DNA of 64,000 bases, from the IMG/VR virus record IMGVR_UViG_3300031466_000001, positions 148,289 to 212,288 of that record. The stretch is one strand, 5' to 3'. Within the stretch, counting starts at the first letter, position 1. Every line of letters starts with the position of its first letter. The notes beneath the pieces were generated by a model. It did no database searches. It was given only the letters and a program-made list of their open reading frames with translations, and had not been told where the DNA came from. Origin of the DNA: a virus (Duplodnaviria > Caudoviricetes). Of this stretch, positions 8,964-29,276 are shown piece after piece. The position numbers and the translations under genes were made by a program.

Positions 8964-11117
8964 ATGAGCAGTAAAAACATTCAGATTCGTCACAAGAATG
9001 GTAGTGAATGGGATAATTTATACCCAAAAACAAAAGCGGAATTAGTAGAAGGTCTTGATGAGCAACTTGCCGGAAAGGTTGATAAAGAAGAAGGTAAAGG
9101 TCTTTCTACTGAAGATTATACTACAGAAGAAAAGAATAAACTTGCGGGCATTGAGGAAGGAGCCAACAAATACGTTCATCCAACTAGTGCTGGTAATAAA
9201 CATATTCCTTCTGGCGGTGCGCCTAACCAGGTACTTAAATATGGCGGTTCGTCAGGAACCGCAACATGGGGTGCTCTGACATCTGCAGATATTCCTACAT
9301 TGGCTCTTAGTAAGATTTCCGATGCAGGTACAGCAGCTTCCAGAGATATCGGTACTTCTGCTGGTAATGTGCCTGTATTGGATAGCAATGGTAAACTTGA
9401 TGTTAATGTCCTTCCTGCAATTGCTATTTCGGATACTTTCGTTGTCGGAAGCGAAGGAGAAATGCTGGGTCTTACTGCGGAAGTTGGTGATATCGCGGTA
9501 CGATCGGATATCAACAAAACATTCATTTTGAGAGCAGAACCTGCATCCGTAGTTGGCAACTGGCAAGAACTTTTGACTCCGACTTCCCCTGTACAATCTG
9601 TTGCAGGTAAAACCGGTGCAGTTACACTGGTTAAAGGTGACGTGGGACTCGGAAACGTCCAAAACTATGGAATAGCAACACAGGAAGAAGCAGAAGCCGG
9701 AACGTCCGATACCGCGTACATGACGCCGCTTAAAACAGCGCAGGCGATTGCTGCACTTGCACCCGCGCCGGATGCTTCGGAAGTTTCGCTTAGTTCACCG
9801 AATTTCACTTCTACCAACGTCCGGGATGGAATGGATGAACTTTTTCAATCTGTCAGTGATGGGAAAAATCAGATCGCTTCCGCCATCACTGACATGGGAC
9901 AGTCTGCTTCAGGAGGCGACACGTTTGCGCAGTTGTCAAGCAAAATTCGGGACATCTCCAAGGACGCGAACGCGGCTGTTGGGGATGTTTTGACCGGTAA
10001 GACGTTTTATCAGGGCGGAGTAAAGCGCACCGGCACGATGCCCAATAACGGATCGGTTTCCCAAACGCTGACATCACAAGGCGAAGAATACACGATCCCG
10101 GAGGGATACCACGACGGCACCGGCACGGTCACGACCGACATCGTGAATCTGTCCGCAGGAAATATCCGAGCCGGTGCGACGGTAGGCGGCGTTGATGGTA
10201 CGTTCACTAGCGACGCGACAGCCACGGCTGGTCAAATCTTGTCTGGCCGGACGGCGTATGTTAACGGCTCGAAGGTAACCGGCAGCATGATCAACAATGG
10301 AGCCGTCAGTCAAACCTTGACCACGCAGGGGGCGTCGTACACAATCCCGGCAGGTTATCACAATGGCAGCGGCACAGTCACGGCCAATATCACCAACTTG
10401 ACGGCGGCCAATATCAAGGCTGGTACGACGGTCGGCGGCGTATCTGGAACATTCACAAGCGACGCAACCGCAACAGCCGCACAAATCTTGTCTGGCCGGA
10501 CGGCGTATGTTAACGGCTCGAAGGTAACCGGCACGATGCCAGTCAAAACAAATGATTATGGCGCACCGCGTACAGGCCAAACTGGGCGTCTGTATGTGAC
10601 ACCGGAAGCAGGATACCATGACGGGACTGTAAGGGTCTATACGGACGACGCTAATTTTAATGCTGCCAATATCAAGTCTGGGGTTACGCTGTTCGGAATA
10701 ACCGGTACGTATGCGCCGATTTCCGTAGGTAGTACAACCCTGACATTTAACCGATCCGGCTCCGGTAACAATGTTACGTCGATTATCTATTATGCGAATT
10801 ACACGCCGCCCAAGACAAACTTTTTGGGGTCGTTCCAAATACCCGTTACGTTCACAATCGGGAACATTGAATATAAAGGAGACCCGTTTAACAGCATCAC
10901 GATCGGATATCCGACAAACCTAATCTTCGGCTATGGTTTGTACATTGTCGACCCGACCGTTAATGCAGAAATACAAATCAGCGCCATTTATAATAGTAGC
11001 ACTGGCCGTATTCAACTACAGATTGGTAACCCGTCCACAGCAAGTCCTAAAGCGTTGTTTACCAATATCAGCACCAATAGCTTTACAGCGGGTTTACGGT
11101 ATGTTTCATGGGAGTGA
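8964..11117 (+). CDS. chimeric tail fibre protein (phage N-terminus + GC-rich acquired C-terminus)
   Basis: LYPKT N-terminus, GKGLSTEDYTTEEKNKLAGIEEGAN, SVAGKTGAVTL, DATATAxQILSGRTAYVNGSKVTG and YTIPxGYHxGxG repeats; abrupt GC rise after about 9650. Confidence 0.85.
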   Translation: MSSKNIQIRHKNGSEWDNLYPKTKAELVEGLDEQLAGKVDKEEGKGLSTEDYTTEEKNKLAGIEEGANKYVHPTSAGNKHIPSGGAPNQVLKYGGSSGTATWGALTSADIPTLALSKISDAGTAASRDIGTSAGNVPVLDSNGKLDVNVLPAIAISDTFVVGSEGEMLGLTAEVGDIAVRSDINKTFILRAEPASVVGNWQELLTPTSPVQSVAGKTGAVTLVKGDVGLGNVQNYGIATQEEAEAGTSDTAYMTPLKTAQAIAALAPAPDASEVSLSSPNFTSTNVRDGMDELFQSVSDGKNQIASAITDMGQSASGGDTFAQLSSKIRDISKDANAAVGDVLTGKTFYQGGVKRTGTMPNNGSVSQTLTSQGEEYTIPEGYHDGTGTVTTDIVNLSAGNIRAGATVGGVDGTFTSDATATAGQILSGRTAYVNGSKVTGSMINNGAVSQTLTTQGASYTIPAGYHNGSGTVTANITNLTAANIKAGTTVGGVSGTFTSDATATAAQILSGRTAYVNGSKVTGTMPVKTNDYGAPRTGQTGRLYVTPEAGYHDGTVRVYTDDANFNAANIKSGVTLFGITGTYAPISVGSTTLTFNRSGSGNNVTSIIYYANYTPPKTNFLGSFQIPVTFTIGNIEYKGDPFNSITIGYPTNLIFGYGLYIVDPTVNAEIQISAIYNSSTGRIQLQIGNPSTASPKALFTNISTNSFTAGLRYVSWE
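9569..9643 (+). repeat. 75-bp perfect direct repeat, copy 1 (copy 2 at 11601..11675)
   Basis: ACTTTTGACTCCGACTTCCCCTGTACAATC...GGTTAAAGGTGACGT is identical at both sites, 2032 bp apart. Confidence 0.95.
10233..10533 (+). repeat. internal 249-bp (83-aa) tandem duplication with 52-bp identical cores
   Basis: CAAATCTTGTCTGGCCGGACGGCGTATGTTAACGGCTCGAAGGTAACCGGCA at 10233 and 10482. Confidence 0.9.
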
Positions 11118-18606: not shown

Positions 18607-20736
18607 TTATTTCCTCTTGCTCTTCAGAGACATAATCGGCATACTGCGTAATTTGAAACTCTTGACAGCCTGCTCCATAAAATACTCTTGGACATTGAAT
18701 GGAACAGGACTTTTCAAAAGTTCGTACTGATTGTCTTTATTGAGAATGTAGGTGTTGAATGTGTCGCGGAAATACATTTTCAAAATAGACAAGAGTTTAT
18801 TTCTGGAATTTTCGTCCGTAATCGGAACCAGAAGTTCAACCCGTCTGTCCAAATTCCGCGTCAACATATCAGCACTTGAAATGAAAATATCTGACTTTCC
18901 ATTATTGTAGAAGAAGTAAATTCTACTATGCTCTAGAAATCTACCAACAACACTCTTGATGCTGATGTTCGAATTGATTTTCTTCATCGAGCATATACCT
19001 CTACAGATAATGGATATCTTGACACCCTGCTCAGAGGCCTCATACAGCTTCTTGATAATACCCAGATCAGAAAGGGAGTTAAGCTTCAACGTAATGAAAG
19101 CTTGTCTACCCTTTTGAGCATTCTCGATCTCTCGATCGATAAGCTGATACAATCTCAATCTCAGATTGTACGGAGCATAGAAAATTTTGCTCACTTCGTC
19201 TCTGGGATCGGAGAAACCTGACAAGACATTAAATATCGTCAACAGGTCATCCGCTATTTTGCTGCTGGATGTGAAGTAGGAAATATCGGTATAGATTGAC
19301 GCAGTCTTGTCGTTGTAATTTCCTGTACCGATATGGCAATACGTTTTGAGATTTTTCTTTCCTTTCCTCACAACCAATATAAATTTACAATGTGTTTTCA
19401 ACTCCTCAATACCATAGATCAATTTACAGCCGGATACTTTTAGTTTTTCTATCAACGACATATTTCTATTCTCATCAAACCTTGCTTTAATTTCGAGAAG
19501 AACACTTACCTGCTTTCCTCTTTCAGCAGCCCTACACAACGCCTCGACAATCGGGGACTCCGCAGAAGATACTCTATACAGAGTCAATTTGATTGCCAAG
19601 ACATCATTATCCTCGGCCGCATGTTCGAGGAATTTGATAACCGGTGTGAACGACTCGTAAGGGTGATGAAGAATGAGATCGCCGTTGTCGATAGCAGTAA
19701 ACATATCGTGCTCGCCGATCAGATCTTCTGGATACTGAGGGTTGAACGGGTCGTACTCGTAAGCCGCATTTCTTATCGGCTTACTTAAGAGAAACGACAT
19801 GTCTACGATGTTTTCACATTTAAACACTTGCCTCTTGTCAATGTCGAAGATTTTGGTCAGAAGTTTGAGGGTTTCCTTAGGAACATCACTGTCGATATCC
19901 ATGAAGATGGGTTTACTAAACTCCCGTTTAATGAGAGTTTCCCTCATTCGGTCGACAATATAAATATCCCGTCTTCCCTCAATTTCAATATCCGCCTCAC
20001 GAATGATTCTCATACATCCCCTATAGATGATACTCTTGTTGATAAATACCTTGTGGAGAAAATTAAAGATAATATCCTCCAACAAGATATATCGTTCTTC
20101 ATCGCTCTCGTCAGTCTCAATCTTGTACAAACGATCAAGACCATGGAGTGGGATGATGGACATTACATTCAGATTTGGATTTTTCTTGTCCCCTAGAGAA
20201 GCTATTATGCATAGCTGCTTAGATTTAATAAGGGGAAATTCTTTGGTTGAGTCAAAGGTGATCGGGGTCAGCAACGGATAAATGTTTCTTTCGAAAAGCT
20301 TTCTTACATAATCAACTTCCTTTTCACTGAGATGCTTGAACTTACAAATCGTGAAATTGTTTTTACGCAGTTTCTTTCTCAGTTTTTCAAAGCTTTCTTG
20401 CTGGATTTCTTTGAAAGAAATAATTTCCCGGAGCAAGAGTTCATATTCTTGCTCCGGGAGAAGACCAGCAATATCCGTTTCTGTATACCCCAATCTGAGT
20501 TTATTAAGGATAGATGAAAATCTAACCATAATAAACTCATCCAGGTTCGATTCCGTGATACCCAAGAACTTAAGTCTCTCCAAAAGAGGAACCTCAGTTC
20601 TCATAGTTTGATGGAGAACCCTTTTATTGAACTCCATCCAACTCAATTCACGATTCATATAGAATCCTGGATTATTAAACTTTGACCTAATCCTATCTCT
20701 TTCAACGTCGAAGAGATCACTAAGATTGTTAGTCAT
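18607..20736 (-). CDS. ppk1: polyphosphate kinase 1
   Basis: NRELSWxxFNxRVL, NLDEFxMVR, LHHPYESF (autophosphorylated His), ELKARFDE-like, HIGTGNYN, GRFLEHSRI, SADMLTRNLDRRVE; full length, 709 aa. Confidence 0.95.
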   Translation of the reverse strand: MTNNLSDLFDVERDRIRSKFNNPGFYMNRELSWMEFNKRVLHQTMRTEVPLLERLKFLGITESNLDEFIMVRFSSILNKLRLGYTETDIAGLLPEQEYELLLREIISFKEIQQESFEKLRKKLRKNNFTICKFKHLSEKEVDYVRKLFERNIYPLLTPITFDSTKEFPLIKSKQLCIIASLGDKKNPNLNVMSIIPLHGLDRLYKIETDESDEERYILLEDIIFNFLHKVFINKSIIYRGCMRIIREADIEIEGRRDIYIVDRMRETLIKREFSKPIFMDIDSDVPKETLKLLTKIFDIDKRQVFKCENIVDMSFLLSKPIRNAAYEYDPFNPQYPEDLIGEHDMFTAIDNGDLILHHPYESFTPVIKFLEHAAEDNDVLAIKLTLYRVSSAESPIVEALCRAAERGKQVSVLLEIKARFDENRNMSLIEKLKVSGCKLIYGIEELKTHCKFILVVRKGKKNLKTYCHIGTGNYNDKTASIYTDISYFTSSSKIADDLLTIFNVLSGFSDPRDEVSKIFYAPYNLRLRLYQLIDREIENAQKGRQAFITLKLNSLSDLGIIKKLYEASEQGVKISIICRGICSMKKINSNISIKSVVGRFLEHSRIYFFYNNGKSDIFISSADMLTRNLDRRVELLVPITDENSRNKLLSILKMYFRDTFNTYILNKDNQYELLKSPVPFNVQEYFMEQAVKSFKLRSMPIMSLKSKRK

Positions 20737-20775: not shown

Positions 20776-20785
20776 ATAATATATA
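20776..20785 (-). promoter_or_regulatory. putative early phage promoter TATATATTAT
   Basis: One of 12 exact copies, all upstream of - strand operons (see findings). Confidence 0.6.
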
Positions 20786-22109: not shown

Positions 22110-23387
22110 TTATTTTTCTTCGTCGATCTTGTGAATCCTGGCAATTAAATCATTGATAAGGAAAAGATTAATATACATCAACATCCTATAGGTAGACACT
22201 GTGTTAGTCTTATTTACAGTAAGGATGAGATTTTCGTAATCAAAACTGTAGTCGGTTTCATTATCAAGAACATCATTATCTTTGAAAACAAAAACTTTTA
22301 TAAGTGAATCCATAGAAATACCTTGTTTAAGATAATATTTAATGCAATTCTTAATTCCATCATTGATTAAATGTGAAACATCCAACGTGTCGGGAGTTCT
22401 ATTTGTCGAAACCTTAAATAGTGGTGCAATATAGAGCTCCCACCCCGCAGGAGGTTCGACTAGATTGTAAAGATTATTTATAGTGAAAATGGGAATGATC
22501 TTATTGTCGTTCTCAATATCGAATTCAATTTGCTCAATAATATCCTTTCTTTCAGTAAAGAAATAATACAAACCGGATGTATTGAATTCAGTGGTAACGG
22601 TGAAATTAATTGCATAGGAGTCGGCAACAAATCCCCTCTTAGATCCATCATCCATAGAAAGACCGGTGAACATAGCATCGACTGTAGCAGGATAATATCT
22701 GAAAAACTCATCATTTCCTGTAGAATTCTTCATCTTATAGGTAAGAGGATATAAAGAGCATTTATTGAAATAGTCCAAAATGGATTTAATATCATCTCTA
22801 TCTATTCCGGCAACACATGCCACACCTTTGATCAAATTTCTATGGATGTTACTTTCGAGAAATGTATTTATATAGAATGGATGCTCATGCCTTATCACGT
22901 TTTTCAAATAAAAATATTGATTAATTTGTTCCATTTGCTGTTCAACTATAATTGTACAATCAAAATTCATTCTCATACGATTCATTAAGAATTTAATATG
23001 AGTATTATTGTCTTTATCTTCAAAGAATGGTTGCAGGTTTCCATAATCCAAGTCAATATAATTATCGGTTATTCTAGATGTAAGGAGGGTTCCTGCAAGA
23101 AAAGCATCATCATTAGATTCAATTCTAGGTCTTACAATAAGCATTGGTTTTCTTCTCTTAATAAATTCTTTATTGGTGTTATCGAAAATATTGAAATATC
23201 TAAACGCTGCTGTCGAGGATATGTTCACCGTATTGAAATAGTTCTTAGGAAATAATTTTTTAATATATTCCGTTATAAAAGCGGTCATATTGCCGAATGT
23301 ATGAGCAAGTGACATGTGAGCTACCGCTATCTCCATTTCGATCACTCCTTTTAAATATTGTTTTTGTGAGTTAAAAGAAAAAAACAA
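22110..23387 (-). CDS. conserved jumbo-phage protein, probably virion structural; likely start 23336
   Basis: Long ORF, AAGGAGTG RBS before MEIAVAH. Confidence 0.65.
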   Translation of the reverse strand: MFFSFNSQKQYLKGVIEMEIAVAHMSLAHTFGNMTAFITEYIKKLFPKNYFNTVNISSTAAFRYFNIFDNTNKEFIKRRKPMLIVRPRIESNDDAFLAGTLLTSRITDNYIDLDYGNLQPFFEDKDNNTHIKFLMNRMRMNFDCTIIVEQQMEQINQYFYLKNVIRHEHPFYINTFLESNIHRNLIKGVACVAGIDRDDIKSILDYFNKCSLYPLTYKMKNSTGNDEFFRYYPATVDAMFTGLSMDDGSKRGFVADSYAINFTVTTEFNTSGLYYFFTERKDIIEQIEFDIENDNKIIPIFTINNLYNLVEPPAGWELYIAPLFKVSTNRTPDTLDVSHLINDGIKNCIKYYLKQGISMDSLIKVFVFKDNDVLDNETDYSFDYENLILTVNKTNTVSTYRMLMYINLFLINDLIARIHKIDEEK

Positions 23388-23417
23388 ACCTTACCCATCA
23401 GGTAAGGTTTGTTTATC

Positions 23418-23978
23418 TTATTTAAAGAATTGAACGATACCTTTCTCTGTCATAATGCCTCCAATACGCATACCAAAGTGATCCTTTTTCATGATGACCA
23501 CTTCAAATCCAGCCTCTTCCAGCGTCTGTAAAGCTTTAGGATGAGCCAATCCCTGATAAGTGAAAATTGCTTCGCAGCATAAGTCATTCAATTCACCATC
23601 AGGATCTTCGATGAGATTGGCTTTGGAGACGATATTATCATCTGTTTCAATTTCTTTCAGCCGCCTGATAAGATTTTGGACTTTTTCGGCTTTATAATAC
23701 AATAGTTCTATAGCGAGATTGAATGGGACTCTAGCTATAGCCCTAACACCGATTGAATACAAATATCTGAAAATTTCTTCTCGTTGGGTCGAAGTTGTAT
23801 CGAACGTTTTGTTAACATGAATGCCACCATAGAAGATAGAATCTAAATTTTCTCTGCGATGGCTTTGCAATTCTTCGAGAACGAATATTCCATTCTCATC
23901 ATTATATTCAATGAGTATAAAAGCTCCCTTAAAACGATCTTTATAATAAATAGGTTTTTCAATTTTAATAATTCCCAT
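23418..23978 (-). CDS. hypothetical protein
   Basis: 186 aa, AGGAGG RBS, early motif at 24025-24034. Confidence 0.7.
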   Translation of the reverse strand: MGIIKIEKPIYYKDRFKGAFILIEYNDENGIFVLEELQSHRRENLDSIFYGGIHVNKTFDTTSTQREEIFRYLYSIGVRAIARVPFNLAIELLYYKAEKVQNLIRRLKEIETDDNIVSKANLIEDPDGELNDLCCEAIFTYQGLAHPKALQTLEEAGFEVVIMKKDHFGMRIGGIMTEKGIVQFFK

Positions 23979-24065
23979 GAAGATTTTCCTCCTAAGAATT
24001 TATTTATTATTGATATTCACGTTTATAATATATATTTTTATAAACTAAATTTACAAAAAAACACT

Positions 24066-24097
24066 AAAAAAATCACTAACGCTTCAACGTTAGTGAT
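24066..24097 (-). terminator. intrinsic terminator downstream of the putative ncRNA
   Basis: Minus strand: ATCACTAACG-TTGAAG-CGTTAGTGAT followed by a T-run. Confidence 0.8.
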
Positions 24098-24110
24098 CAA
24101 AGTTTTAATC

Positions 24111-24304
24111 GACCAGGCGGCCACCGGAAACCGTCCATCGCGCCCGTCTATGCGCACGAGGTCGCAGCAAAAATAGCCGTCAGGAAAGCGGGTCGCAGGG
24201 CAGCGACCGATCCCCGCTAACCCAGACAGCTCCGGGAAGTGCCGCAATACCGCATGAGGGCTTCGCTCGGCCATCCGCCGAAACACCCGGTGACCGTCCT
24301 GGTT
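24111..24304 (-). ncRNA. structured rod-like ncRNA, ~194 nt (6S-RNA-like size; family unassigned)
   Basis: 65% GC island (117/180 nt counted over 24121-24300). Nested stems ACCAGG(A)CGGUCACCGG/CCGGUGGCCGCCUGGU, GCCC/GGGC, AUGCG/CGCAU, GCGGCA/UGCUGC, GCUGUC/GACGGC, AGCG/CGCU, GGUCGC/GCGACC. Internal G-U pairs favour the minus strand; a terminator follows. Confidence 0.7.
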
Positions 24305-24316
24305 ACTAAATAGTTC

Positions 24317-24358
24317 CATAAATAATAAAAAAATTATATAATTTTTTTATTATTTATG
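24317..24358. repeat. 42-bp perfect AT-rich palindrome
   Basis: CATAAATAATAAAAAAATTATATAATTTTTTTATTATTTATG is its own reverse complement. Confidence 0.9.
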
Positions 24359-24881
24359 AAGTTTTTTGTGCTTGATATTTTCTATAATAGTCATCTTTAG
24401 TATACAGGGTATCCATAAACTTTCCATCTCTCCAAAACTCAACACCTTCGCATCCGGTTCTACTTTCATAGATATCGAAAGCACTATCGATATCCGGGCC
24501 ATTATATAAAACAACAGCCTCACCACGCGAAGATCTGAAGACAAGGAAGAGATCGTTTGCTTTAACATCCATTTTTGTTTTGAGGAACTCTTTTGCCATC
24601 ATATCACGTGCATCCAGTATCTGCTTCTTGATCCTGAATGCATAAAAATCTTTGTCATCGTAAAGATTAATAAATTTTGTGCGTTCTCTTTCTTCTTTAT
24701 TTTGCATCAGATCGATATAGACAATCGAATCCGTATCGATCACAAACCACTTGTCATTGGGATATTTGAATCTGAGATACAGGGACCAGAACTCATTGTG
24801 GCTCTGATCATGAAGATAGCAAACTTTCCTCGTCTTGGAGTAAAGGGCATAGATTTTATACATGTTTGCCATGTTTATCAT
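24354..24881 (-). CDS. hypothetical protein
   Basis: C-terminal YNGxD...A...W.xxK domain shared with 24902..25621. Confidence 0.7.
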   Translation of the reverse strand: MINMANMYKIYALYSKTRKVCYLHDQSHNEFWSLYLRFKYPNDKWFVIDTDSIVYIDLMQNKEERERTKFINLYDDKDFYAFRIKKQILDARDMMAKEFLKTKMDVKANDLFLVFRSSRGEAVVLYNGPDIDSAFDIYESRTGCEGVEFWRDGKFMDTLYTKDDYYRKYQAQKTS

Positions 24882-24901
24882 CTTCCCTTCATTAAAAATA
24901 G

Positions 24902-25621
24902 TTAATTATTATTAAATTTATCTTTGAATTCTTTTATGCTGTTAAGATTAAATGAAGAATGTAATTTATCTGCTACCCAAACATCCAACTGGGGTTTTTC
25001 TTTCTTATGACGATTAAATGCTTTAAGTGCCTTTTCTGAATCAACACCGTTGTACACCGTGGTCATTACGAGATTGGGCATAATTGTAACTTGAAAGATT
25101 GGGGCCATTTTATTACCAAACAAATTAGTTCCGGGAATTATTTTGAAGTTATTGATATCCTTAAGACTAAGCGTATAAACCGTCTCACGTTTATCAATAA
25201 CCTCAATCGTGCCAGGATAATCTTTGGGTACTTTATAACGCTTTTTCAACCACCTGAGATTTTCTTCAACCAATTCCTCTCTGGTATTAAACACTAACCC
25301 ATAAAAGTTTATAACGAGCCAGTTTTGTCCCTCTCCCTTTGCAAACAATTCTGCCGCACTAGGAGGAAGCCCTAAGGCTTCTCCTATTGCCATATTCATA
25401 TCGAAAGCTCTACCTTTCTTTCGACCTTCTCTCATCTTATTTTCAAACTCGATCATCATATCACGAGTTTGAAAAAAGATCATGAATCCCCTATCCAACT
25501 TGATAAAAGGAAAGCCTTTCTCTCTTAAACTGTTAACAAATTCTTTCTCATTATTCTTGAATATAATTGCTGGCTTAAAACCGTCAAGAAAGAATTTAAG
25601 TGAGGCATATTGTGGCTGCAT
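24902..25621 (-). CDS. hypothetical protein
   Basis: 239 aa, AAGGAG RBS. Confidence 0.7.
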   Translation of the reverse strand: MQPQYASLKFFLDGFKPAIIFKNNEKEFVNSLREKGFPFIKLDRGFMIFFQTRDMMIEFENKMREGRKKGRAFDMNMAIGEALGLPPSAAELFAKGEGQNWLVINFYGLVFNTREELVEENLRWLKKRYKVPKDYPGTIEVIDKRETVYTLSLKDINNFKIIPGTNLFGNKMAPIFQVTIMPNLVMTTVYNGVDSEKALKAFNRHKKEKPQLDVWVADKLHSSFNLNSIKEFKDKFNNN

Positions 25622-25645
25622 ATAAATCGGCTCCTTATTTATTAA

Positions 25646-25867
25646 TTAATTAATTACTTTTTCTTCAATAATAACACCATATTTATCCAGAACTTCCTTC
25701 ACACCATTGACAGAAAACAGTTCTTCGATAAATAATTTGGCCGTATTATGCATATCTTCCAATGTACCGGTTGCAGGTAATTTCAAATTAATATTGCCAA
25801 TTCCAATAACGATGTAGCCAGGCTCTGTATTAATTGAAAGGATTTTCTCTTCAGTAGCTTCCATCAT
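25646..25867 (-). CDS. hypothetical protein
   Basis: 73 aa, in series with its neighbours. Confidence 0.55.
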   Translation of the reverse strand: MMEATEEKILSINTEPGYIVIGIGNINLKLPATGTLEDMHNTAKLFIEELFSVNGVKEVLDKYGVIIEEKVIN

Positions 25868-25971
25868 GTCTTACCACCCATAGTTTTTATTTTTTACCAT
25901 ATTGTACCTGTAAAAATTAATTGAAAAAATGATGATGAGAAGTAGAGTTTTCTCTACTTCTCATCATCATT

Positions 25972-27351
25972 TTATTCATCGTCGTCGTCATCATCGTAAC
26001 CGTACGCGCCGGAGTGGGTCTCTTCAGGAGAAGACATACGATATTTATTGACAAACCTCATTGCAGAGTCGGAACGATTCTTAAACATTTTCAAATGTGC
26101 TTCTCTACTAGAGATTAAGATCTCCCTTGCTTTCTCAAGAGCCTCTTCTATAGTCAACTCTTGATTACCGGCCAAAATATATCGGACTGTCGTCATGAGC
26201 TCTTTCAGAGATGCCATAGGGAAACCTTCGCTATATTTCACGAAAAGTTCAACCACACCATCATCGCTGTCTGGAATGTTATCATTTTTGAAAGTTTTGT
26301 ATTCAGCGAGGATGTCCCCGATTTTACGGCTTTCAAAGTAATATCTCCGGGTTAATTCCGACGGATTGTCGATCTTATAAGTACGGTCGAAACGACCGGA
26401 CCTATTCATAAATGCTGGGTCAATTTTATCAGGGTAATTAGTAGTTCCGATGAAGAATATGCCAGATTTAACTTCAATACCGTCAAGAATATTCAGTAAT
26501 TCGGATCGATTACGTTCATTGACAAACGAATCAAAGTCTTCGATGATAATGATTGCTTTCTTTCCATCTAACGCTTTCACTAAAGAAGACAAAATCTTCG
26601 GAAGATTTCTAACTCGAGTAATAACAATTTTAGTGATTTTGGGCAAGCGTCTAATGATTTCACGAATAGTTGCGCTCTTCCCATTACCAGGGTCGCCATA
26701 GAGGATGATTCCTCGCTTATATGGAATCTGCATTTTTTCATAAATTCTCTTAGTTTCGTCCCTGAAAAAGATCTCAATATCATTCATGACTTCACTAAGA
26801 GGGGAGTTTTCCTCAAATACAAGATTTTCATCCGCTACTTTTTTCTTAATTGCAGCAACTGGTCTAATGGGCTCATCGTCATTATCAGTAATTTCGATAT
26901 ACTCACCAGCACTACACTTGAAATCGATATCCTTAAATAAGTTCTTGGTTGAATCTTGCCTAAGAAGTTTCTTGATATTTTTAGAAAATTTCCTAAGATA
27001 ATCTGTATCTACTAAAAACACACAATAGATCGAAAAGTTCTTAGTTGTATAGAAGAGAATTGAATTTATCTTTTTGGATACTGCAATACGATGAAAGTTA
27101 TCGAAATTGATCGACATGTCAAAAATGTTAACTTCGCTAGGCTGTGGAAGCGTATCGGCATATTTATAAACGTTACCTATATCCTTAAATTTGAATTTTT
27201 TCATAATTTCTTTCATTATTTCTTCTCGATGAACATAAAATTCAATTCTTTGATATTCGCCTTTTTCAAGACAAACTTCATATTCAGGATGTACCTCGTT
27301 CACCAACTTGAGTAACGACTGTTCCATTGAATAACTGAAATCAGATGCCAT
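25972..27351 (-). CDS. AAA+ ATPase (BCS1-like clade)
   Basis: IPYKRGIILYGDPGNGKS (Walker A), IIIIEDFD (Walker B), LLNILDG, TTNYPDKIDPA, RSGRFD (second region of homology). Confidence 0.9.
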   Translation of the reverse strand: MASDFSYSMEQSLLKLVNEVHPEYEVCLEKGEYQRIEFYVHREEIMKEIMKKFKFKDIGNVYKYADTLPQPSEVNIFDMSINFDNFHRIAVSKKINSILFYTTKNFSIYCVFLVDTDYLRKFSKNIKKLLRQDSTKNLFKDIDFKCSAGEYIEITDNDDEPIRPVAAIKKKVADENLVFEENSPLSEVMNDIEIFFRDETKRIYEKMQIPYKRGIILYGDPGNGKSATIREIIRRLPKITKIVITRVRNLPKILSSLVKALDGKKAIIIIEDFDSFVNERNRSELLNILDGIEVKSGIFFIGTTNYPDKIDPAFMNRSGRFDRTYKIDNPSELTRRYYFESRKIGDILAEYKTFKNDNIPDSDDGVVELFVKYSEGFPMASLKELMTTVRYILAGNQELTIEEALEKAREILISSREAHLKMFKNRSDSAMRFVNKYRMSSPEETHSGAYGYDDDDDDE

Positions 27352-27371
27352 TGTACTATATCCTCCTATGT

Positions 27372-27803
27372 TTATTCTGGTCTTTTTTCGCCCACCAACA
27401 TTTGTAGAGCAATGGAATATTTATTTAATCTTTTCAGATCTTTTTCAGTAATTTCTTTCAAACGCTTAGTAATCATATTGTCTTCAATATCAAAAATTTT
27501 TATTTTAGTAGCTAATTCGTTGGTTTTCACTCTCATAATAAAGTCATCGTAAGATTCGTTAGGTCTTCTCGTGAGACAATCAATTGCGTTAATAACTTCC
27601 TCAGAAAAACCATATTCTCTGAGATTATCAATGGTTATATTAGTATCTTCAACGACATCATGTAAAAGAGCAACGATTCTTTCTTCATCAGTATCACATT
27701 TTGTCATAACTCTAATTGGATGGAGAATATATTGCTCTCCACCTTTATCAACCTGTCCTTTATGAGCATTTGCTGCTATTATAAGAGCTTCCGTCAAGTC
27801 CAT
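27372..27803 (-). CDS. HD-domain hydrolase, RelA/SpoT small alarmone hydrolase (Mesh1-like) type
   Basis: AHKGQVDKGGEQYILHP, ALLHDVVEDT, KIFDIEDN. Confidence 0.8.
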   Translation of the reverse strand: MDLTEALIIAANAHKGQVDKGGEQYILHPIRVMTKCDTDEERIVALLHDVVEDTNITIDNLREYGFSEEVINAIDCLTRRPNESYDDFIMRVKTNELATKIKIFDIEDNMITKRLKEITEKDLKRLNKYSIALQMLVGEKRPE

Positions 27804-27860: not shown

Positions 27861-29276
27861 TCAAATATTATTGAACTCGTAAAGACCAATCAATTGGTCT
27901 TTAAGAAGATTGAATTCATTGTTAAACAACCCGTCGTTCCTAGAAATGAACATATTAAGTCTCGGATTAAATGCCCTGAACGCCTTTTTCAGTTCTTTCG
28001 TTTTCAGTGACACAATATTGAGAACGTCACCATCGAAGTCCGCGTTCAAGACAGTGAGAACTTGAATCGGAATCGACATGGTATAATCCTCTTCGTGTGC
28101 ACGTTTAATGTCAATAACTTTCATACAGAGTACCGATCCATAGTTAATGGTTGGATTCCGGTTAATGATCATAGCCGGTTTCCATTTCTTAACGATGTAC
28201 ATCATCACTTCATAGATCTTAGGGTCGAAGTTTATTGTTGCCTTATACCATTCCTCATATGCTTCGTTATGAGTAATTCTCTCCATTTTGGCCAGAAGAG
28301 CAATTATCTCATATTTGTACAATTCGAGGAACGTTAAATACCCCAGACGAATTTCATCTGCTCTCAAAGTTGGATCGGGGATAACAACGTTTCTTGCAGA
28401 AAAGTTGATTCGACCACCAAGAAGCTGATACCTGATATGCCCATCTTTTTGGTTAACTTGATTGAATACAAGTTGCCAAAGTTCATTAACTTTCTTTTGA
28501 ATTACAGACAAGGTTACAGCTTCTCCGAGTTTTTCTTTCTTTTTCCTCTGACGAGTCGTCAGGAGAGACTCATCATGAAGAAGTCTACTTAATGCAAAGA
28601 TCGTTTCATATTTTCTATCAAAGCTACTAAAGAAGAAGTTTTCACCTCTAAACGAGACCGGTCGAAGAACCGACGAGTATACCGGGATACAAGATGCAAA
28701 AACTTTGTCCTTATCCCTCATAATCTCATCGAAAAGTTCCGTTTGTTTATTCTTCTTCTTTTCGTAGAAATAATCCATAATCTCTTCGAATCTTTCACGA
28801 AACTCGATCAACCCAATACCTTTAAATGGACTTTTTCCTTTCTTGCTAATAATTTCACCATCTCTGGTGATTTCTTTGTCGTATTCAATGATTTCACTGA
28901 AAGCTTTATCGCCAATGGCGACTTTAAGCATTCTATAGAACAACGGTTGAATAATAGCATAATCGCCGAGTTTAATCCAACCGGTAACTTTCATATTCAC
29001 GTCACGAAAGATTACTTTATGTCCACAAATTTTACATACCTCGCCTTCGTATACACGACCTTTAAGTTCCTTACATCTACAGCTATATCTTTCCGAGAAT
29101 GCATCTTCGTCTTCCCAATCGGTCGCAAACCTAGGCGATTGAATACCATTGAATGATTTTTCTTCTTTATTTTTTATGAATGCGTAATCCGTAACTTCAA
29201 AACCGTTTCCGGTAATAAAACTAATTTCACATTGTTCATCCCAACTAATTTTCTTCAATTGTACAGTTTTACCCAT
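27861..29276 (-). CDS. phage multisubunit RNA polymerase beta-prime N-terminal subunit (catalytic; probably non-virion RNAP)
   Basis: CxC...CxxC zinc finger, LLGGRINFSARNVV, INRNPT, catalytic NADFDGD; early motif at 29353-29362. Confidence 0.92.
   Translation of the reverse strand: MGKTVQLKKISWDEQCEISFITGNGFEVTDYAFIKNKEEKSFNGIQSPRFATDWEDEDAFSERYSCRCKELKGRVYEGEVCKICGHKVIFRDVNMKVTGWIKLGDYAIIQPLFYRMLKVAIGDKAFSEIIEYDKEITRDGEIISKKGKSPFKGIGLIEFRERFEEIMDYFYEKKKNKQTELFDEIMRDKDKVFASCIPVYSSVLRPVSFRGENFFFSSFDRKYETIFALSRLLHDESLLTTRQRKKKEKLGEAVTLSVIQKKVNELWQLVFNQVNQKDGHIRYQLLGGRINFSARNVVIPDPTLRADEIRLGYLTFLELYKYEIIALLAKMERITHNEAYEEWYKATINFDPKIYEVMMYIVKKWKPAMIINRNPTINYGSVLCMKVIDIKRAHEEDYTMSIPIQVLTVLNADFDGDVLNIVSLKTKELKKAFRAFNPRLNMFISRNDGLFNNEFNLLKDQLIGLYEFNNI

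Follow-up and report, generated by a model that had tools for sequence, protein, structure and literature searches.

The 64-kb stretch of DNA analysed here (the window; mean 35% GC) derives from an uncultured, giant (jumbo), compost-derived phage. It contains a gene for a split multisubunit RNA polymerase beta' subunit (27861–29276), the best matches of which (~30–35% identity) are in Yersinia phage phiR1-37 and the AR9/PBS1-type jumbo phages of Bacillus, Listeria and Staphylococcus. The early promoters of AR9 have the consensus AAATATATATTAT-(6N)-G (PMC5312081), and the early-promoter core TATATTAT is present 19 times on the minus strand of the window versus 4 times on the plus strand, mostly 30–60 nt ahead of minus-strand gene starts (minus-strand sites at 20783, 24032, 29360, 30000, 30646, 31008, 32129, 33043, 36056, 40342, 46031 and 52156, among others). 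The match to the full consensus at 24037–24018 suggests a virion polymerase of the same specificity, despite the beta' subunit being only ~30–35% identical, and the AR9 late motif AACA-(6N)-TA/G is located ahead of several other genes. Because of the beta' matches and the AR9-type early and late promoter motifs, the phage is, judged from its sequence, a distant and uncultured AR9-like jumbo phage. The original prediction supposed a phage with RNA polymerases of its own, and the split multisubunit polymerase genes and AR9-type early promoters agree with this.

A gene for an HD-domain phosphohydrolase (Pfam HD_4; PHROG 990) comes immediately behind the beta' gene and that gene's terminator (27372–27803, minus strand). 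The beta' gene of phiR1-37 is contiguous with one small gene and the structural gene g272 (g272–g274 compared with window coordinates 22110–27803), whereas here ~3.9 kb separates the HD-domain gene from the g272 homologue. This span contains an AAA ATPase gene, genes for proteins of 73, 239, 175 and 186 aa, and the GC-rich element that is the subject of this report; the additional ~3.9 kb relative to phiR1-37 suggests that the element sits in a lineage-specific insertion zone.

Minus-strand terminators are located around the element at 27862–27837, 25971–25928, 24098–24071 and 23414–23382, and from their positions the element appears to close a three-gene unit with gene starts at 25867, 25621 and 24881. 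The structure at 25928–25971, a perfect 20-bp hairpin flanked on each side by T-runs, resembles a strong and possibly bidirectional terminator following the AAA ATPase gene. The exact early promoter of the 186-aa gene (24037–24018) follows the terminator of the element within 60 nt; since that gene has its own promoter downstream of the terminator, the element is not its leader. Further along the window, a full-length polyphosphate kinase 1 gene with all four domains (18607–20736, minus strand) lies behind the early-type promoter at 20783; its matches in genomes from a pattern-based scan are 31–38% identical, are spread across several phyla and give no host signal. The features of the locus are as follows.

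24354–24881 (minus strand), upstream gene (175 aa), third and last in the three-gene unit
24317–24358 (no strand), perfect 42-bp palindrome made up of A and T, on the upstream-gene side of the GC block
24112–24303 (minus strand), GC-rich core of the candidate RNA from closing stem 5' arm to 3' arm, as delimited by composition, folds, strand asymmetry and G-U counts
24286–24310 (minus strand), 5' arm of closing stem P1 (sub-helices 24310–24305, 24303–24298 and 24296–24286; pair probabilities 0.92–1.00)
24267–24281 (minus strand), predicted side hairpin P2 (CGGC, GGAUG loop, GCCG), common to both folds
24162–24247 (minus strand), predicted long apical arm P4 (helices of 8, 7, 3, 6 and 4 bp with internal loops between them), common to both folds
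24135–24161 (minus strand), predicted hairpin P5 in fold A, or 3' strand of helix P3' with 24261–24251 in fold B
24104–24128 (minus strand), 3' arm of closing stem P1 (sub-helices 24128–24118, 24117–24112 and 24109–24104)
24064–24098 (minus strand), intrinsic terminator (12-bp stem, 4-nt loop, U7) ending the transcription unit
24038–24319 (minus strand), 93-aa ORF overlapping the element, not a gene (split by the T4 allele, no Shine-Dalgarno sequence, no homologue)
24018–24037 (minus strand), exact AR9-type early promoter serving the downstream 186-aa gene (23418–23978)

The GC block is 192 nt long and 65.6% GC, and the spacers adjoining it are 7% and 21% GC; the 65% GC island in an AT-rich intergenic region that was originally described is thus present. 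Read on the minus strand, it has 36% G, 30% C, 22% U and 12% A, and it is the sole non-coding block reaching 56% GC per 100 nt within the 64-kb window. Elsewhere, a ~1 kb block of 57–65% GC (9667–10653) is contained within a 717-aa ORF (8964–11117) in the fibre-gene region, the rest of which has a very different composition.

The minus strand of the block folds better than its shuffled counterparts. A 261-nt minus-strand RNA has a predicted energy of -116.5 kcal/mol (z -4.7), with none of 200 shuffles as good, while the plus strand folds worse (-91 kcal/mol, z -3.7); for the 211-nt core, dinucleotide shuffles give z -3.9 for the minus and -1.8 for the plus strand. In a control set of 134 windows of natural 66% GC DNA the mean z is -0.46 (sd 1.45) and five windows are at z -3 or below, such that the fold is unusual rather than extreme, in roughly the top 3–4% of natural GC-rich windows. 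The helices include 7–11 G-U pairs and zero A-C mismatches, which argues for selection on a minus-strand RNA and not on a DNA palindrome.

The ends of the block are complementary over 22–23 bp (24310–24286 with 24128–24104; pair probabilities 0.92–1.0), and two near-equal folds are predicted for the RNA that they enclose. Fold A, the optimum at 37 C (-100.6 kcal/mol), has the closing stem and a multiway junction with two further hairpins. Fold B (-96.9 kcal/mol at 37 C) is a rod with one side hairpin in which 24261–24251 pair with 24154–24142, and consists of a 22-bp closing stem, a 24/13-nt bubble containing the side hairpin, and an apical arm of ~39 bp. Their 37 C energies are 3.7 kcal/mol apart, and fold B is the better at 55 C and above; the 22–23-bp closing stem, the side hairpin with its GGAUG loop (24281–24267) and the apical arm (24247–24162) are common to both. 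Of the single long, irregular minus-strand hairpin first proposed, the strand and the G-U-containing structure beyond shuffles therefore hold, but not the single fixed rod, which is one of two near-equal folds and gives way to a multibranch optimum at 37 C.

The high GC content would keep the element folded at compost temperatures, with predicted energies of -54 kcal/mol at 65 C and -38 kcal/mol at 76 C. The palindrome as RNA, by comparison, is a 21-bp A-U hairpin predicted at -17 kcal/mol at 37 C, about -5 kcal/mol at 65 C and ~0 at 76 C, and the terminator alone is at -6.8 to -3.5 kcal/mol over 65–76 C. The GC content of structural RNAs goes up with growth temperature (PMC8827189).

The palindrome (24317–24358) has TATAAT at its centre, is the longest in the window and extends over the stop codon of the 175-aa gene upstream. 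Both it and the clean terminator reported on the far side of the block are present as first described, the latter as a hairpin followed by U7 at 24098–24071 that is formed in the minus-strand orientation only. The suggestion that TATAAT marks a promoter for the element fares differently. A sigma-70-like match of 10/12 is found within the palindrome (24360–24333), but such matches are no commoner in the region than in shuffles (65 found versus 64.8 expected), so TATAAT is not evidence of a promoter. Neither type of AR9 promoter was found before the element: the late motif AACA-N6-TA/G is absent, and relative to the early consensus the site has 3 mismatches in 13, where single mismatches inactivate AR9 early promoters (PMC5312081). 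With no phage promoter of its own, the element is most likely the 3' end of the three-gene transcript. The homopolymer arms of the palindrome (24333 and 24348) vary among copies of the region as A7/T7, A7/T6 and A6/T6; the symmetric indel was considered as strict co-variation and dropped, the pattern being one of stepwise homopolymer variation in which symmetry is frequent yet not constant.

The 93-aa ORF noted in the original prediction is open on the minus strand at 24038–24319, a span that includes the terminator. In most of the ~20 copies recovered (see below) it is divided into 56 and 35 aa by a T5/T4 length polymorphism at 24173, and the change that breaks it also opens a 71-aa frame on the plus strand. 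There is no Shine-Dalgarno sequence for the 93-aa ORF, and translated searches with either frame found no homologues outside this phage and no Pfam matches. The ORF was rejected as a gene on the grounds of the common 1-nt indel and the lack of a ribosome-binding site and a homologue; as far as its reading frames tell, the block does not code for protein.

Approximately 20 contigs containing the element region were recovered from JGI, ENA and Logan assemblies by way of the flanking 175-aa and 186-aa proteins. In a large protein collection each of these proteins is found only in its own cluster at 90% identity or more, and it was these clusters that supplied the contigs. All ~20 copies are at least 98% identical across the region and represent one phage species; one of the source samples is 76 C compost. 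Five haplotypes of the element are distinguished by four variable sites.

24291, A/G, within the 5' arm of P1; the A-U pair here is G-U in most of the other copies
24152, C/T, changing C-G to U-G; the pair is kept in both folds
24111, C/T, in a 2-nt bulge of the P1 3' arm
24173, T5/T4, in an internal loop of apical arm P4

All four polymorphisms are structure-neutral, for which the chance is estimated at about one in eight. Variation within the element (1.9 per 100 nt) is not lower than in the flanks, and among the five haplotypes, at 98% identity or more, there are two one-sided pair-keeping changes and no compensatory double change.

The element is single-copy in the window, and searches for relatives elsewhere returned none. 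Blastn against phage records and plasmids found no match, and thus no sequence relation to any phage record, and megablast of 9 kb of context found none among phages. Exact and degenerate pattern scans of viral contigs and genomes, which are insensitive, found no copies. Eight pattern matches in metagenomes were rejected as chance: these soil contigs (65–68% GC) share only a 20-mer with the element, within one conserved and probably membrane-protein-coding sequence, and have the 16-mer GATGGACGGTTTCCGG in common, with 18–20 identical bases in most. Even a 41-bit pattern can evidently gather chance hits from an abundant conserved gene. A covariance model of the element (R1), a weak probe given its near-identical input sequences, had no match in the window beyond the element itself and none in phiR1-37, BpSp, LPJP1, SA1 or AR9.

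The flanking proteins have no relatives among viral contigs, and searches of Pfam, PHROG, PADLOC and NCBIfam yielded no informative match to either. The 175-aa protein belongs to a small family with 15 representatives at E 0.001 or below in HMMER searches (29–49% identity to the query), and neither a GC island nor an R1 match is found alongside these remote homologues; immediately downstream of the gene for the closest (44% identity) lies a convergent gene and no island. The AF2 model of the 175-aa protein has a pLDDT of 89.6 and no fold match in the PDB (best Foldseek E 0.13; best VIA Z 4.1 over 53 residues, rmsd 2.6), and that of the 186-aa protein (pLDDT 37) is too poor for use.

Known RNA families do not account for the element. 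Rfam 15 gives no match at the gathering score anywhere in the full 64-kb window. At E 10 or below with permissive filters, the 501-nt region 23950–24450 has 11 matches listed, all partial and at chance level, and among these are none to 6S, SRP, RNase P, packaging RNA, Y-like RNAs or riboswitches. The Infernal/Rfam comparison proposed for the original 6S suggestion (RF00013), and for SRP, thus comes out negative at both thresholds among the matches listed. A tRNA/tmRNA scan found nothing and there are no tandem repeats in the element. Several specific roles were rejected: a riboswitch or cis leader of the 186-aa gene, given the absence of an Rfam match and the gene's own early promoter past the terminator; a type III toxin-antitoxin RNA (ToxI-like), for which tandem repeats of ~36 nt ahead of a terminator and a ToxN-type toxin gene would be expected, and the 186-aa protein matches no Pfam, PADLOC, PHROG or NCBIfam family; and a CsrA-type sponge or a Shine-Dalgarno-targeting sRNA, the GGA motifs and C-rich loops respectively occurring, by hand counts, at about the frequencies expected from composition. 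As for features of mobile elements, inverted ends are present, there is no clear target-site duplication, and there is a single copy in the window.

The block is rather likely to be a functional RNA, and a structured non-coding RNA of the minus strand is probably the best reading of the evidence. The strand and structure follow from the strand-biased fold z, the G-U pairs and the minus-only terminator, and the non-coding nature from an ORF that a common indel interrupts and for which searches gave no homologue. The counterweight to a probable RNA is that the copies are all at least 98% identical and that searches of five related jumbo phages and of phage and plasmid collections, together with the pattern scans, gave no homologue.

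Several alternatives nonetheless merit consideration. The element may instead act in cis as a 3' untranslated element, whose structure and terminator would shield the three-gene mRNA from 3' exonucleases when hot and insulate the next early promoter from read-through. Its position, with the last stop codon immediately on one side, the terminator on the other and no promoter of its own, the exact early promoter within 60 nt downstream, and the weakness of the terminator alone at 65–76 C (-6.8 to -3.5 kcal/mol, versus -54 to -38 kcal/mol for the element) are all consistent with this. However, no other unit in the window has such an element, the others ending in plain hairpin terminators, and ~190 nt with several arms far exceeds what 3' protection needs; a purely cis role is somewhat unlikely. 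That the block is left over from foreign GC-rich DNA, or is a miniature inverted-repeat element, and lacks any RNA function is unlikely to a slightly greater degree. The closing stem would then correspond to terminal inverted repeats, and the ends do form an inverted repeat of roughly 17 bp with one mismatch and one indel; the element is also single-copy, confined to one phage species and absent beside the nearest homologue of the 175-aa gene, and the second GC-rich block, apparently foreign and within a tail-fibre-like gene of the same genome, adds a little. Against such an origin, the interior folds beyond its ends, strand-specifically and with 7–11 G-U pairs and no A-C mismatch, a clear target-site duplication is not visible, the translations match nothing known, and limited tests found no second copy or source. 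That 3–4% of natural GC-rich windows fold about equally well counts against a functional RNA.

The 6S-like decoy of the original prediction, in which a rod mimicking an open promoter would occupy host sigma-A RNA polymerase and aid host shut-off while the phage polymerases work, is improbable. Fold B would supply a loosely fitting shape (22-bp stem, 24/13-nt bubble and ~39-bp apical arm, ~190–210 nt in total) and is the preferred one from 55 C upwards, the phage has multisubunit polymerases of its own, and infection by AR9 decreases host mRNA levels (PMC5312081). Rfam 6S is nevertheless absent among the matches listed at E 10 or below, the 37 C optimum is multibranched without an open bubble, and the bubble of fold B is off-centre with both of its strands able to form hairpins. 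The element also has neither its own promoter nor homologues, and the literature searched contains no report of a phage-encoded 6S mimic. The fallback offered in the original prediction, a new class of non-coding RNA, fits better than 6S. Least probable by far is that a small protein is encoded here, by the 93-aa minus-strand ORF or, in some copies, by the 71-aa plus-strand ORF. A frame is open across the island on each strand and gene callers gave products of 93, 89 or 56 aa in some contigs, but GC-rich DNA is expected to hold open frames, and the T5/T4 site breaks the minus ORF in one allele and the plus ORF in the other, both alleles being common. Moreover, there is no ribosome-binding site, the minus ORF crosses the terminator, and homologues and Pfam matches are lacking.

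Among known systems, the candidate RNA resembles 6S RNA (RF00013; B. subtilis 6S-1/6S-2, E. coli SsrS) in its size of ~190 nt, in being untranslated and predicted to be stable, and in that a closing stem, an internal bubble and a long, irregular apical stem are combined in one of the two folds predicted for it. It differs in lacking a covariance-model match at the thresholds used, in a bubble that is off-centre and largely self-paired, and in being phage-encoded at the 3' end of an mRNA unit, where 6S is a cellular gene. In 2002 Klein, Misulovin and Eddy reportedly identified structured non-coding RNA candidates by looking for intergenic regions of high GC content in the genomes of thermophiles or in AT-rich genomes, and later intergenic screens have set GC content against length. 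The element is like such candidates as a sharp, non-coding, well-folding GC-rich island in an AT-rich genome with at least one hot source habitat; these normally have many diverged homologues and covariation, whereas the element is an orphan of a single phage species.

The predicted RNA is also similar to the stable small RNAs of phages, such as the phi29 packaging RNA (RF00044) and the non-coding RNAs annotated in jumbo phage PA5oct (PMC7318152), as a discrete structured RNA of ~100–200 nt in a virulent phage. Unlike the phi29 packaging RNA, it has no Rfam match and its phage is AR9-like, not phi29-like. It shares inverted-repeat ends, a location between stop codon and terminator and the capacity to form a long hairpin if transcribed with miniature inverted-repeat and REP/ERIC-type repeats, but is single-copy, had no family elsewhere in the searches made, and has strand-specific G-U pairing and a branched interior.

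A structured non-coding RNA could arise at this locus as follows. Transcription from upstream of 25867 through the three genes most likely yields the element as the 3' end of their transcript, although read-through from further upstream may also contribute. The 21-bp all-A/U hairpin before the element would be a natural cleavage site for a double-strand-specific RNase, and cleavage there could free a stable RNA of ~240 nt. We infer that the released RNA would act in trans by binding, titrating or scaffolding a protein, for which host RNA polymerase is one of several candidate partners. This fuller account, of a lineage-specific, heat-stable structured non-coding RNA with a trans-acting, protein-binding role, could equally prove right or wrong. 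A narrower version is unlikely, if a shade less so than the 6S-like decoy as originally conceived: a heat-stable decoy RNA cut from the mRNA 3' end that would tie up some host protein, whether sigma-A RNA polymerase, as 6S does, or a different host or defence factor that binds nucleic acids. If true, such an RNA would represent a new class among those that phages use to take over their hosts.

The element is currently a well-formed orphan candidate, and its value is chiefly as a cheap and well-defined target for transcript mapping, probing and pull-down. If real, it would be an RNA from a little-known branch of the AR9-like jumbo phages that is associated with thermophiles, and if also trans-acting it would join the short list of structured phage RNAs that take part in host takeover.
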